Source: Candidatus Pacearchaeota archaeon
GTDB lineage: Bacteria > Patescibacteriota > Minisyncoccia > Minisyncoccales > Minisyncoccaceae
Assembly: GCA_035362415.1 (NCBI GenBank)
Contig: DAOSDM010000005.1
Coordinates: forward strand, 1-41,870
Length of the DNA stretch: 41,870 bases
Direction: 5' to 3'
Shown here: positions 36,710 through 39,472 of the stretch, piece after piece
Numbering within the stretch: the stretch's first letter is position 1
Layout of the letters: the number at the start of each line of letters is the position of its first letter
Translations under genes and position numbers: made by a program
The notes under the pieces: model-generated
Told to the model about the DNA's origin: nothing
Database searches by the model: none
The model's input: the letters and a program-made list of their open reading frames with translations, nothing else

Positions 36710-39472
36710 TTATTTTAAAAAGTTTCCAAATACGCCAACATTATAGCCAACAAAAGTTAAAACAAAATCAATAGCTGTTATGGAGAAAATGATAATAAGT
36801 AATCCTAATCCAATATATTTCCACAAATCCTTTATTTGAACAATTACCTTTGGATTTCCAAGAGCAGTAAAAAACTTAATTCCAGAATAGACTACACTTC
36901 CAGCTATAATTAAAGGAACAAGTCTTCCTAATGCAAAATCAATGATATTTCGTAAAATAATTAAAAGATGAGAAATTGTACAAGACTCTCTTTCGTTCCA
37001 AGGAGTTTCTGGATCGTCAAGTGGCCTTCCACAAGGAACAATACTTTTCGTGTTGTTATTCGTTTCCGAAACTTTTTCTCTTGTTTCAGGATTAATATTT
37101 TGAAATATTGTAAAATTTTTAGATTCACTCCATTCACTAAAAGTACCATCATCACATTTATCTGAAAAACAAGACCTTACTTTCCATGTATAGGTTCCCA
37201 AACATTGTGGAGAGAAAAAATATTCATTGCTATTTATAATATTTTCTTTTTTATCTAAACTTTCACAAAATTTAGAAGTTTCTTCCTCACCCTTTGTATA
37301 ATCAAAACTTATTTGATATGTTTTTATTTGATTAACTTCACCCCATTTTAAATTAGATCCTCTGTCCTCATATAAAGACAAAGTCTTGTTTTCAGGCTCT
37401 AGTCCCGTAGGAGCATCTAACTTTACTTTGAAACTTAATGTATTGCTATAATCCCCGCATTTGTTACCCTCAATGTCAGCACAAGTTTTAACTTGCCAAT
37501 TATAATCAGTATTTACCTTAAAAGGAAGGTCTTCTGAATATTCTAATTTCAAATTATCCCATCTTATTTTAATTTCCTTATTAATGCCCCCACCCTCTAG
37601 TTTAAAAATATATGACCTAGCTCCAGGAACGCTATTCCATTTAAAATTAAGTGGAGGAATAACTTCTCCGCTAGGTGAAATTAATTCAGGAGGATTACCC
37701 GTTATAGTGAATTTATACAATTGAGACCAATCATCGCAATTCTTATAATATCTGTCAGTACAATTTTTGAATCTCCAAGAATAAGTTGTTTTTAAATCTA
37801 AATCATTGTATGAAATACCTGAAGCAGATAATTCCTTTGTTTCAATTAATGCTCCGTTTTTATAAAACTCAAAAATACTTGAAACATACCCATAAGGATT
37901 AACCCAAGAAATATTTACTGGAAGCCCAACAAAAGAACCATCGGCTGGAACAATATTCGTGCTTTCCCCAAGATCGGCATCACTTGTTTCAAAATACCAT
38001 TCTTGACTATATGGTCTAGTGGAACAAATACCTGCCATTACTGTAGGACACCCTCTCACTTTCCAAGAATGCCTGCTGTTTTTTATAAACATGTAATTAT
38101 CTATATCTGAATATTCACTAAATAAATTCAATGTTACAGGGTTAGAAATGTGATAGCAAAGTTCATCTGTTATACCTTTGTTAAAAGCACAAACTTTTTT
38201 TGTTTCATTTGTTTCTGGATTTGTTTCAAATATTTTAGGTAAAATACTATAAGAATTAGTTCCTCTTTTTTCTAATCTCCCAGAATCTACATCACACCAA
38301 TCTAGAAGTACAGGTGGCGTTACTTTTAAGCCAGAGGTTGGCGCTTGCAGAGCCCAATCAAATGGCTCATAATCCGCATTATTTAATGGAAGCTTATCTA
38401 TACTATCTATTTGAGGCCATGCATTCCATGCAGAATAATTAGAACCTTCCCAATCTAAGTCTTCAGGTGACTTTAGTTCAGGAGCATAGGCAGTTGTAAA
38501 TTTAAAGTTTGATCCAGAATTACATTCTGTTCCATCAGCCTTACAACATGTTTGTATTGTTAAATCGTATTCTTGGCCGCTTTTTAGCCAACAAGGGTTA
38601 TGATCTACTCTAAAATTATATTCAGAAGATCTATAAGTTCCCTTGTCTATGTAATTTGGCTGACTATCAGTATTAAGAACTTTATAGAAATAACCTTCCT
38701 TAATCTCATTTGTATCCTGATCAAAGTTTTTAGAAATATAATCACTAAAAGTTTCGCTATCTGCCTTTGTTGGAGGATTTACTAAATTAACAACTTTATT
38801 GTCTACTTCTTCACTTACCTTAAGACTCAATTTATATGATTGTGGACCTATGGCAGTAATACCTTCGGGGCACCCAAAATTACCACAACTTCCACTTTTT
38901 TGCCAATAAGCATTTTCATCCCAATCAATCTTAAGCGGAGATTTCACATTAGTCGAATCGTTACTAGGCTCTATACAATTACTTGTAATATTTTCAGAAC
39001 ATGTTTGAGGATAATCTTCAGAACCATCTATTGTTAGCTCCGGATTTTTTGGATAATTTGGATTACTATAATATCTCAATCCAGAAACATTATCTAAACA
39101 ATTTCCACTACATACAAAATATGGCTTTGTTCCTGAAGTGGAACTGCTTCCACACTTACTTTTAGGACGCTCATAATATGATCCTCCTACACAAACCTGC
39201 CAAGGCTCTGCAACCGATACAATTACTTCTGAACTAAGATAAGGATACCTATCAGGTATTTTAGGACATATACCATGCTCAGTACATCTGCAACATTCCC
39301 ATCCAACCCAAGTTTCTTTTATTATTTTTGCGTCTCCACAACCGCCAGAACATTTATAAATATTATATGTGTATGTATATGTTTTACAACCTGCTAAAAC
39401 AAAATCAGAAGATACTCCCAAGCCCATGGAAATTAATATAAATAACAAAAAAAATTTAATATATATTTTCAT
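36710..39472 (-). CDS. large Cys-rich surface protein (predicted lipoprotein) with FN3-like repeats and C-terminal VirB2-like two-helix domain
   Basis: Signal peptide with lipobox VLAGC. Cys-dense N-terminal region. FN3-like segments (e.g. PPELISPSGEVIPPLNFKWNSVPGARSYIF). C-terminal LVPLIIAGSVVYSGIKFFTALGNPKVIVQIKDLWKYIGLGLLIII. Overlaps the rsmA stop by 17 nt. Confidence 0.6.
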   Translation of the reverse strand: MKIYIKFFLLFILISMGLGVSSDFVLAGCKTYTYTYNIYKCSGGCGDAKIIKETWVGWECCRCTEHGICPKIPDRYPYLSSEVIVSVAEPWQVCVGGSYYERPKSKCGSSSTSGTKPYFVCSGNCLDNVSGLRYYSNPNYPKNPELTIDGSEDYPQTCSENITSNCIEPSNDSTNVKSPLKIDWDENAYWQKSGSCGNFGCPEGITAIGPQSYKLSLKVSEEVDNKVVNLVNPPTKADSETFSDYISKNFDQDTNEIKEGYFYKVLNTDSQPNYIDKGTYRSSEYNFRVDHNPCWLKSGQEYDLTIQTCCKADGTECNSGSNFKFTTAYAPELKSPEDLDWEGSNYSAWNAWPQIDSIDKLPLNNADYEPFDWALQAPTSGLKVTPPVLLDWCDVDSGRLEKRGTNSYSILPKIFETNPETNETKKVCAFNKGITDELCYHISNPVTLNLFSEYSDIDNYMFIKNSRHSWKVRGCPTVMAGICSTRPYSQEWYFETSDADLGESTNIVPADGSFVGLPVNISWVNPYGYVSSIFEFYKNGALIETKELSASGISYNDLDLKTTYSWRFKNCTDRYYKNCDDWSQLYKFTITGNPPELISPSGEVIPPLNFKWNSVPGARSYIFKLEGGGINKEIKIRWDNLKLEYSEDLPFKVNTDYNWQVKTCADIEGNKCGDYSNTLSFKVKLDAPTGLEPENKTLSLYEDRGSNLKWGEVNQIKTYQISFDYTKGEEETSKFCESLDKKENIINSNEYFFSPQCLGTYTWKVRSCFSDKCDDGTFSEWSESKNFTIFQNINPETREKVSETNNNTKSIVPCGRPLDDPETPWNERESCTISHLLIILRNIIDFALGRLVPLIIAGSVVYSGIKFFTALGNPKVIVQIKDLWKYIGLGLLIIIFSITAIDFVLTFVGYNVGVFGNFLK

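Follow-up and report, generated by a model that had tools for sequence, protein, structure and literature searches.

The 41,870-nucleotide stretch of DNA analyzed here (the window) is a low-GC (∼30%) segment of a bacterial chromosome around the replication origin, with dnaA, dnaN, rnpA, yidC, and jag, and its close relatives carry the label “Candidatus Paceibacterota” (candidate phyla radiation [CPR]/Patescibacteria). A monoderm-type type IV secretion system (T4SS) cluster adjoins the origin genes, with all of its genes on the minus strand (Table 1). The subject of this analysis is one gene of this cluster (the fusion gene), encoding a 920-aa protein in which a Cys-rich ectodomain with fibronectin type III (FN3)-like modules is joined to a C-terminal segment resembling T4SS pilins. 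The same layout, i.e., a T4SS near dnaA, VirB2-like pilins, and no relaxase, was described in a 2025 survey of Patescibacteria (PMC12102498); among the open reading frames (ORFs) of the window, no VirD4, relaxase, VirB5, or PrgB-like protein was detected.

The ORF is exactly as described in an earlier reading of the letters alone (the sequence-only reading), and its ATG start is backed by 17 full-length homologues with the same beginning, which are 910 to 985 aa long, have 34 to 69% identity, and share the whole architecture. Five contigs from several samples carry a gene for the identical protein, so the gene is not a misassembly, an explanation that conservation of the fusion architecture also rules out; absence of the fusion in all relatives would have spoken against the sequence-only reading, and the fusion is present in all relatives found. 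The Cys richness reported there is pronounced: 34 Cys residues make up 3.7% of the protein, versus 0.66% in the other 36 ORFs of the window (binomial P = 2e-15), and 14 of the 34 lie within residues 29 to 166. A profile of residues 28 to 345 found no homologue outside the family, and the head is in this respect an orphan domain.

Table 1. Coding regions of the T4SS cluster and its surroundings, with predicted segments of the 920-aa protein (arrow, predicted cleavage)
Feature	Position	Strand	Basis or remark
VirB4 ATPase	27269-29038	-	T4SS core; PF26593 on identical protein, synteny
212-aa TraC-like protein	29043-29681	-	T4SS core; synteny
PrgI/VirB3-like protein	29683-30105	-	T4SS core; synteny
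133-aa protein	30171-30572	-	T4SS core region 27269..30572; synteny
704-aa polytopic membrane protein, VirB6-like by position	32028..34142	-	At least 7 hydrophobic segments; syntenic in all loci
295-aa T4SS_pilin protein	34132..35019	-	PF18895 E 8e-10; NF045849 E 6e-6
248-aa membrane-anchored protein	35955..36701	-	Weak PsbP-like similarity (PF01789 E 0.005)
Fusion gene, 920 aa	36710..39472	-	ORF; 17 full-length homologues; identical protein on 5 contigs
Predicted pilin module, residues 811-920	36713..37042	-	PF18895-type; AlphaFold2 pLDDT 83
Low-complexity linker, residues 793-810 (NINPETREKVSETNNNTK)	37043..37096	-	pLDDT <50 for residues 802-831
Three tandem FN3-like modules (504-593, 594-686, 691-792)	37097..37963	-	HMM i-E 1e-22 to 7e-31
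Two degenerate FN3-like modules with large insertions, residues ∼170-497	37982..38965	-	FN3 HMM partial matches; low pLDDT
Cys-rich head, residues ∼28-169, 14 Cys	38966..39391	-	Fold not confidently predicted
Predicted signal peptide, residues 1-27 (MKIYIKFFLLFILISMGLGVSSDFVLA↓GC)	39392..39472	-	Hydropathy, alignments, orthologue N termini
ksgA (RrnaAD)	39456..40268	-	Overlaps fusion-gene start by 17 nt; upstream neighbor conserved
Plain 138-aa pilin	L024:605-1021, ∼6.6 kb beyond fusion gene, outside window end		Weak TrbC and T4SS_pilin matches

The FN3-like modules of the sequence-only reading are borne out by structure prediction, and there appear to be five of them. The Pfam fn3 hidden Markov model (HMM) has no match on the 920-aa protein. 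The AlphaFold2 model, built from the 17 homologues, is confident only at residues 500 to 800 (predicted local distance difference test [pLDDT], 70 to 94), where it consists of tandem beta-sandwiches, and a Foldseek search against the PDB related this region to three-FN3 fragments (CNTN4 FN1-3, LAR FN1-4, and fibronectin; E ∼1e-12, prob 1.0). By this model, residues 500 to 800 adopt a tandem FN3 fold. Each of the three tandem modules has a conserved Cys pair after a Y-x-W-x-V motif. An HMM built on them detected partial copies farther upstream at residues 276 to 327 (i-E 4e-5) and 456 to 496 (i-E 0.004), in the degenerate region, whose F-strand motifs are YNFRVDHNPC and HSWKVRGC and which also contains the invariant junction YAPELKSPEDLDW (residues ∼329 to 341). 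Altogether, the motif Y/H-x-W/F-x-V-x-x-C occurs five times, with a second Cys after each copy, which suggests five FN3-like modules, three of them modeled confidently.

The N-terminal signal peptide is probably cut by signal peptidase I (SPI). The sequence-only reading took VLAGC for a lipobox and the protein for a lipoprotein; the string is indeed present at residues 25 to 29, and lipoprotein status is unsupported. Diacylglycerol modification of Cys29 after LspA cleavage at VLAG↓C, with the head tethered to the membrane, would be compatible with any of the other readings discussed below, and a textbook L-A-G-C at residues 26 to 29 after the h-region, together with a Cys29 that is invariant in the 17-member alignment, speaks for it. 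Nevertheless, it is unlikely. LAGC is absent in 16/16 aligned homologues and in distant syntenic orthologues; N termini at this point read NFCYA, FVLAEGE..., or VLARC, and the residues preceding the invariant Cys in orthologues (N-F, S-F, E-C-R, K-C-K, or A-R) form no lipoboxes. Clear SPI-type sites are found in orthologues, including the more distant syntenic ones (NFCYA↓, VLA↓ADD, VSA↓QGG, and VQA↓QCG), and VLA↓G of the window protein is itself a good SPI site. Among 104 long relatives, 95 have a signal-like h-region and 5 have a lipobox-like motif. Further, the number of Cys residues is even, so that full disulfide pairing would be possible only with Cys29 unlipidated, and a head tethered to the membrane would defeat a projecting stalk.

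At the C terminus, the putative pilin module runs from a prelude (SIVPCGR..DDPETPWNERESC..H, containing Cys814 and Cys831) through helix 1, a basic loop (GNPKVIVQIKDLWK), and helix 2 to a tail. The two hydrophobic helices of the sequence-only reading are seen both in the AlphaFold2 model (residues 833 to 869 and 874 to 907) and by hydropathy (836 to 869 and 883 to 912). The loop contains K875, K881, and K885, of which K881 is invariant, as is W884, and the prelude is acidic. By the positive-inside rule, the basic loop and acidic prelude predict an N-out/loop-in/C-out topology, which is that of VirB2: the ectodomain and a disulfide-bonded prelude would lie outside, helix 1 would pass from outside to inside, the loop would be cytoplasmic, and helix 2 would return to an external tail. 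With both termini outside, an extension at either one would therefore stay external, in the membrane or in a filament.

Profile comparisons relate this module to the free-standing pilins of CPR bacteria. PF18895 was matched individually by 10/15 orthologue modules (best E 4.4e-6) and, in the broad family described below, at E ≤ 1e-3 by 14/55 members; one protein of that family (P0068) reached 26.7 bits. The fusion-family profile (alignment A2) retrieved free-standing 130- to 180-aa CPR pilins by hmmsearch at E 1e-13 to 1e-27, most of which had previously been annotated as PF18895 (16/27 at E 1e-16 to 1e-27). When aligned with hhalign to an alignment of small pilins only, it gave a probability of 99.7% (P 9e-26) over 107 columns, with a score of 19 for the reversed control, and in a joint alignment (A3) fusions and small pilins are collinear throughout, starting at the G-L-V-P-C prelude and finishing where helix 2 ends. 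Within the genome itself, the fusion profile aligned with the plain 138-aa pilin over the GIVPC prelude and the two helices (Prob 78%, P 1.8e-5), and the 295-aa protein matched the fusion module by BLASTP (E 7e-4). These results identify residues ∼811 to 920 as a predicted pilin module of the PF18895 (T4SS_pilin) type, in the CPR branch of the VirB2/TrbC superfamily; the name “pilin” given to PF18895 in Pfam is itself a prediction.

The sequence-only reading had foreseen a generic double-transmembrane anchor as the finding that would undo it. A generic surface protein with an ordinary anchor, whose pilin likeness merely reflected hydrophobic composition and whose T4SS neighborhood was coincidental, might be suspected because whole-protein Pfam and NCBIfam scans gave no informative match, the C terminus alone matched PF18895 at E 0.2, and fold searches with the hairpin model were uninformative and nonspecific. 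The module alignment likewise gave only chance matches against all PDB chains (E ≥ 0.26; MrpG and PsaF signal peptides) and no pilin. Hydrophobic composition does not account, however, for the strength of the hhalign match relative to its reversed control or for the conservation of a nonhydrophobic prelude (VPCG..C..H), and coincidence does not account for the synteny described below (17/17 plus 13 loci). We therefore reject a generic anchor as next to impossible.

The fusion is linked to classical VirB2 transitively, by way of the small CPR pilins, because direct similarity between the fusion and VirB2 is weak, and direct membership of the fusion module in VirB2 is not claimed. The reference was an alignment of seven genuine VirB2/TrbC proteins from MPF_T plasmids. 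With hhalign, the small CPR pilins matched it at 92.7% (P 4e-7) and the mixed alignment A3 at 93.3% (score 46.6), the two spanning P 3-4e-7, compared with scores of ∼13 for reversed controls and 8 to 20 for 20 block-shuffled controls. The profile check against TrbC/VirB2 proposed by the sequence-only reading gave high probabilities by way of the small pilins and low ones for the direct fusion profile (Prob 3 to 13%); PF04956 (TrbC/VirB2) was matched by 1/15 modules (E 0.051).

Comparison with the free-standing pilins also bears on whether the protein is a precursor. Their mature N terminus begins exactly at GLVPCG after signal-peptidase cleavage, and a disordered linker occupies the corresponding point of the fusion, so that a cut before SIVPCG might free a soluble Cys-rich/FN3 protein and a small pilin, with the ectodomain as a giant leader or co-secreted factor. 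The fusion differs from the usual PF18895 architecture, however, in having a ∼780-aa ectodomain plus linker before SIVPCG and no SPI site there. The linker contains neither a hydrophobic h-region nor an AXA site; signal peptidase I could not act on it, and separation of the ectodomain from the pilin module by this route is therefore not expected. The locus has no evident dedicated protease, a plain pilin is already present in the genome, and the geometry of an FN3 stalk makes sense only if it is tethered. Taken together, these points make a precursor very unlikely.

The fusion is widespread. An exhaustive HMM search of 1.84 billion representative sequences with the module profile returned 1,786 proteins at E ≤ 1e-3, of which 534 reached E ≤ 1e-10. 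Among the best 150, 146 were newly returned, of which 117 are 400 aa or longer and carry the module at their very C-terminal end; most of the short ones are gene fragments. Fifty-five of these long proteins align end to end, and their consensus (LPVKLDWDDV, APEP..P.DPDW, repeated Y.W.V.AC...C modules, and GLVPCGR..DNP.TPWNERE.CQIKH) is as in the window protein. A Pfam census of these 55 found Ig_Rha78A_N (FN3-like) in 30, T4SS_pilin in 14, and fn3 in 3, with Peptidase_M23, C39-like peptidases, PKD, and InlB B-repeat as extra domains in a few; a separate scan of nine representatives, some of them outside the set of 55, also found Beta_helix, Laminin_G_3, ALK/LTK glycine-rich, K319L-like PKD, and Big_7 domains.

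Conservation within the broad family is concentrated in the module, where median pairwise identity is 47.8%, versus 32.4% in the ectodomain, and is the higher of the two in 99.7% of 1,485 pairs. Together with the invariant residues of the module (P, C, C, H, K, W, and G among them), this difference suggests constraint beyond what a hydrophobic transmembrane anchor would need. The ectodomain, in turn, is mosaic. Two members (P0003/P0007) are 94% identical over residues 28 to 345 and 30 to 43% identical beyond, and the pairs P0004/P0009 and P0005/P0011 are 87 to 89% identical over the N-terminal 320 residues versus 26 to 41% in the rest. The junction lies near the invariant YAPELKSPEDLDW, at window residues ∼329 to 345 (nucleotides ∼38438 to 38488; alignment A1), which implies recombination around this motif and two deep allele classes for the putative stalk plus pilin module. 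Such mosaic patterns are typical of exposed, host-interacting proteins.

Linkage of the fusion gene to the T4SS is strict. Gene order in 13 close-family loci is DksA, LysM-M23, KsgA, fusion, (PsbP-like), ∼300-aa pilin, VirB6-like, (SPFH), p133, PrgI, TraC-like, VirB4, and YidC. A scan of GTDB genomes used a narrow peptide pattern and returned the close family only (12 loci), and the wider test was a metagenome scan with the module alignment of the broad family (80 loci). Of the metagenome loci, the 17 that extend 8 kb or more downstream all have the same T4SS genes there (pilin, VirB6-like, PrgI, TraC-like, VirB4, and YidC), and 44/46 complete fusion ORFs in the scan encode 573 to 1,682 aa. 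Because the same genes recur in the 17/17 and 13 loci, the fusion gene is a core member, and the first gene, of the oriC-proximal T4SS cluster in this Paceibacteria-like CPR lineage. The statement of the sequence-only reading that such a fusion is not a standard T4SS component thus holds for canonical systems but not for this lineage.

Immediately downstream, 8 nt past the stop codon of the fusion gene, the gene of the 248-aa PsbP-like protein encodes an N-terminal membrane anchor and an acidic low-complexity insert, and its position is kept in several loci (L001, L012, L065, and L067). This gap and the 17-nt overlap with ksgA are the extent of the evidence for an operon: between 34900 and 40600, counts of promoter-like sites equaled shuffle expectation, and the few terminator-like sites marked no operon boundary. 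The 704-aa VirB6-like protein had no Pfam match.

Among the products of the cluster, the cytoplasmic and core ones are conserved (VirB4, 67 to 90% identity; TraC-like protein, 57 to 84%), and the fusion (26 to 38%), the VirB6-like protein (25 to 31%), and the C-terminal domain of the pilin are highly divergent. Compared with L001, L003, L020, and others, a hypervariable island extends over ∼30685 to 39400, in which the fusion beyond residue 345, the PsbP-like protein, the C-terminal domain of the pilin, the VirB6-like protein, and SPFH are 25 to 50% identical, in genomes in which VirB4, the TraC-like protein, and KsgA are 72 to 90% identical; the island could be a co-varying surface cassette. 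Two neighboring genes were also observed. A LysM-Peptidase_M23 gene (40426 to 41454, plus strand) lies just upstream in nearly all loci (DksA, M23, KsgA, fusion), and an M23 domain occurs inside the fusion protein itself in 2/55 broad-family members (e.g., P0047, residues 291 to 414); the M23 protein is a possible cell-wall hydrolase partner that would stand in for VirB1 in a T4SS from which VirB1 is reported to be mostly missing. An AAA_14/DUF4143 ATPase gene (26001 to 27131, minus strand) stands between VirB4 and jag/yidC. In relatives L001, L017, L018, and L020, jag/yidC come after VirB4 and nothing in between matches this gene, which therefore looks like a local insertion.

Three proteins with pilin modules are found per genome: the plain 138-aa protein, the 295-aa protein with a C-terminal extension, and the 920-aa protein with an N-terminal extension, both extensions being on termini predicted to be external. 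The 295-aa neighbor is accordingly no plain pilin either; it consists of a signal peptide, a pilin module (residues 44 to 113), and a ∼180-aa C-terminal extension with 6 Cys, and close relatives retain ∼52 to 54% identity in the pilin part only. The gene of the 138-aa pilin lies between a truncated gene and rpsO, a place that is kept in L001 and L003, and its product is a candidate major subunit for the two extended proteins.

We give an even chance to the reading of the 920-aa protein as a surface adhesin that is coupled to the T4SS, has a pilin as its base, and is incorporated as a minor or tip subunit. The protein has an export signal, and the platform of VirB6-like protein, PrgI, and VirB4 would recognize the module in the same way as the 138- and 295-aa pilins, after which a pilus or stalk would take it up as a minor subunit. 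Its position would most plausibly be in the first, tip layer, which is the role of VirB5 in Gram-negative systems; a filament of this ∼100-kDa subunit alone is sterically implausible. Carried on five FN3 modules as a ∼20-nm stalk, the Cys-rich head would then be presented to the surface of the host cell, and host specificity would be tuned as the exposed parts diverge fast and recombine into mosaics. We infer the label adhesin from the architecture, i.e., a disulfide-rich, fast-evolving, mosaic head on an FN3 stalk. In the literature, a pilus-tip location and nucleation model has been described for VirB5 in Gram-negative assembly (PMC12857230), CPR T4SS pilins are essential in Southlakia (PMC10633639), and a pilus is suspected in CPR T4SSs, its formation being an open question (PMC12857230).

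Several observations weigh against incorporation into a filament or against an adhesin. The C-terminal 119 aa alone scored 12.1 bits against PF18895 (E 0.21), below the 26.6-bit gathering cutoff. Fusion-only profiles matched the seven plasmid VirB2/TrbC proteins at Prob 3.3 to 12.9% (P 0.002 to 0.013), not above the best shuffled control (20). No recognizable binding domain was found in the head by Pfam scans and profile search. A stalk of five FN3 modules could reach the surface from the membrane without any pilus, which fits equally a membrane-docked accessory whose module would stay in the cytoplasmic membrane and dock on the VirB6-like/PrgI/VirB4 complex or in the membrane pilin pool, with the stalk carrying the head through the wall to the surface as an adhesin or as a spacer beside the channel. 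An FN3 module is ∼3.5 to 4 nm long, and five would reach ∼18 to 20 nm. Moreover, a T4SS pilus has not been observed in any CPR bacterium (PMC12857230), and Gram-positive T4SSs use cell-anchored adhesins instead of pili (PMC12102498), both of which favor docking.

The homology and synteny evidence for docking is identical to that for incorporation as a pilus subunit; the present data fit both alike and cannot separate them. Docking would, however, require only a plain transmembrane anchor, whereas the complete module with its prelude has been kept and is more conserved than the ectodomain, which suggests interactions of an assembling pilin, and a plain pilin has been kept in the genome as a potential major subunit. 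In our judgment, docking is less likely than incorporation and is its main competitor.

Known systems resemble the fusion in part. With the Patescibacteria VirB2-like pilins (PF18895; Wang et al. 2023, PMC10633639; Quinonero-Coronel et al. 2025, PMC12102498), it shares the module (G-[LI]-V-P-C prelude, two helices, and G-x-P...K loop), the locus type (virB4/prgI/virB6-like near dnaA-yidC), and the lineage. Those pilins are small (∼130 to 160 aa), free-standing, and sometimes in arrays of 2 to 11, whereas the module is the C-terminal 12% of the 920-aa protein and the ectodomain sits where the signal peptide of a pilin would be cleaved. The two-helix hairpin, basic loop, and predicted N-out/C-out topology are common to the fusion module and VirB2/TrbC/TraA (PF04956). 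Classical pilins of this group are ∼7-kDa mature peptides, often cyclized or acetylated, and we know of none with a large fused ectodomain. Unlike the Gram-negative VirB2 systems, the fusion belongs to a monoderm host, which lacks an outer-membrane core complex. The likeness of VirB5, a soluble helical protein rather than a pilin fusion, to the 920-aa protein lies in the proposed role only (first layer or tip, host contact), and kinship in sequence or fold would not be expected.

Tip adhesins of chaperone-usher systems offer an analogy only. FimH and PapG combine a receptor-binding domain with a pilin domain, through which the machine incorporates the adhesin, and the design logic of an adhesive ectodomain joined to a subunit-type domain is the same. 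Pilus system, fold, and assembly are unrelated, with Ig-like donor-strand exchange in FimH and PapG versus a lipid-associated helical hairpin in the fusion. PrgB-type adhesins are likewise large surface proteins encoded with a monoderm MPF_FATA-like T4SS but are LPXTG/sortase-anchored to the wall and have no pilin module; PrgB homologues were not found in Patescibacteria by the 2025 survey (PMC12102498). Extended VirB6 proteins of Rickettsiales are T4SS membrane components with big hydrophilic, presumably surface-exposed domains (PMC12857230), the extension being on VirB6 and not on a pilin. The fusion belongs to neither the FimH-type adhesins nor the extended VirB6 family, and no mention of pilin fusions was found in the open-access full-text papers searched on T4SSs and CPR.

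More broadly, a VirB2-type pilin may have been turned into a portable display module in CPR bacteria. The ectodomain of the locus-leading fusion would be an adhesin and, in some relatives, a peptidoglycan hydrolase or peptidase, the tip of the filament or stalk would be a host-recognition or wall-breaching device, and recombination at YAPELKSPEDLDW would switch host specificity. We advance this only tentatively, as possible rather than probable; if true, a pilin-adhesin fusion would be known for the first time from a T4SS of any kind, and a machine that episymbiosis requires would have its missing adhesin. The T4SS of Patescibacteria is essential for epibiotic growth in the one species tested, its function has been called “completely unknown” (PMC11665869), and in the only systematic survey “no adhesins ... 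were detected” (PMC12102498). The 920-aa fusion is a good candidate for the host-contact part missing from published T4SS surveys. Presence of the module in a filament would make it the first T4SS pilin to carry a fused ectodomain and would be evidence that a monoderm T4SS has a pilus; a module outside the filament would still be a new way to couple a surface protein to a T4SS. The sequences are already public but unnamed, and what is new here is recognition of the architecture and its strict locus linkage: a single conserved, locus-leading gene with a fast-evolving mosaic ectodomain and a pilin module is a concrete handle for the field.

Elsewhere in the window, three ∼300-aa proteins (454 to 1350, 1340 to 2230, and 2881 to 3795, all on the minus strand) bear the N-terminal methylation signature of type IV pilins (N_methyl, E 1e-7 to 4e-9) together with a Laminin_G_3/ConA-like lectin domain (E 1e-14 to 1e-19) and are predicted to be type IV pilus pilins fused to lectin-like domains. 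The design of a pilin plus a binding domain would thus recur in a second, unrelated pilus system of the genome. A class A penicillin-binding protein (PBP; transglycosylase plus transpeptidase; 9045 to 11087, plus strand) is abutted by a 2,110-aa bacterial alpha-2-macroglobulin with MG1-10, bait region, and TED domains (11088 to 17420, minus strand). The pairing of alpha-2-macroglobulin with PbpC is known from diderm periplasms and is found here in a presumed monoderm CPR genome. Finally, the source metagenome-assembled genome, whose protein P0001 is identical to the window protein, is labeled “Candidatus Pacearchaeota archaeon” at NCBI; its contig carries bacterial dnaA, dnaN, PBPs, yidC, and rnpA, its relatives are Paceibacterota, and the label looks like a taxonomic mislabel or a case of misbinning.

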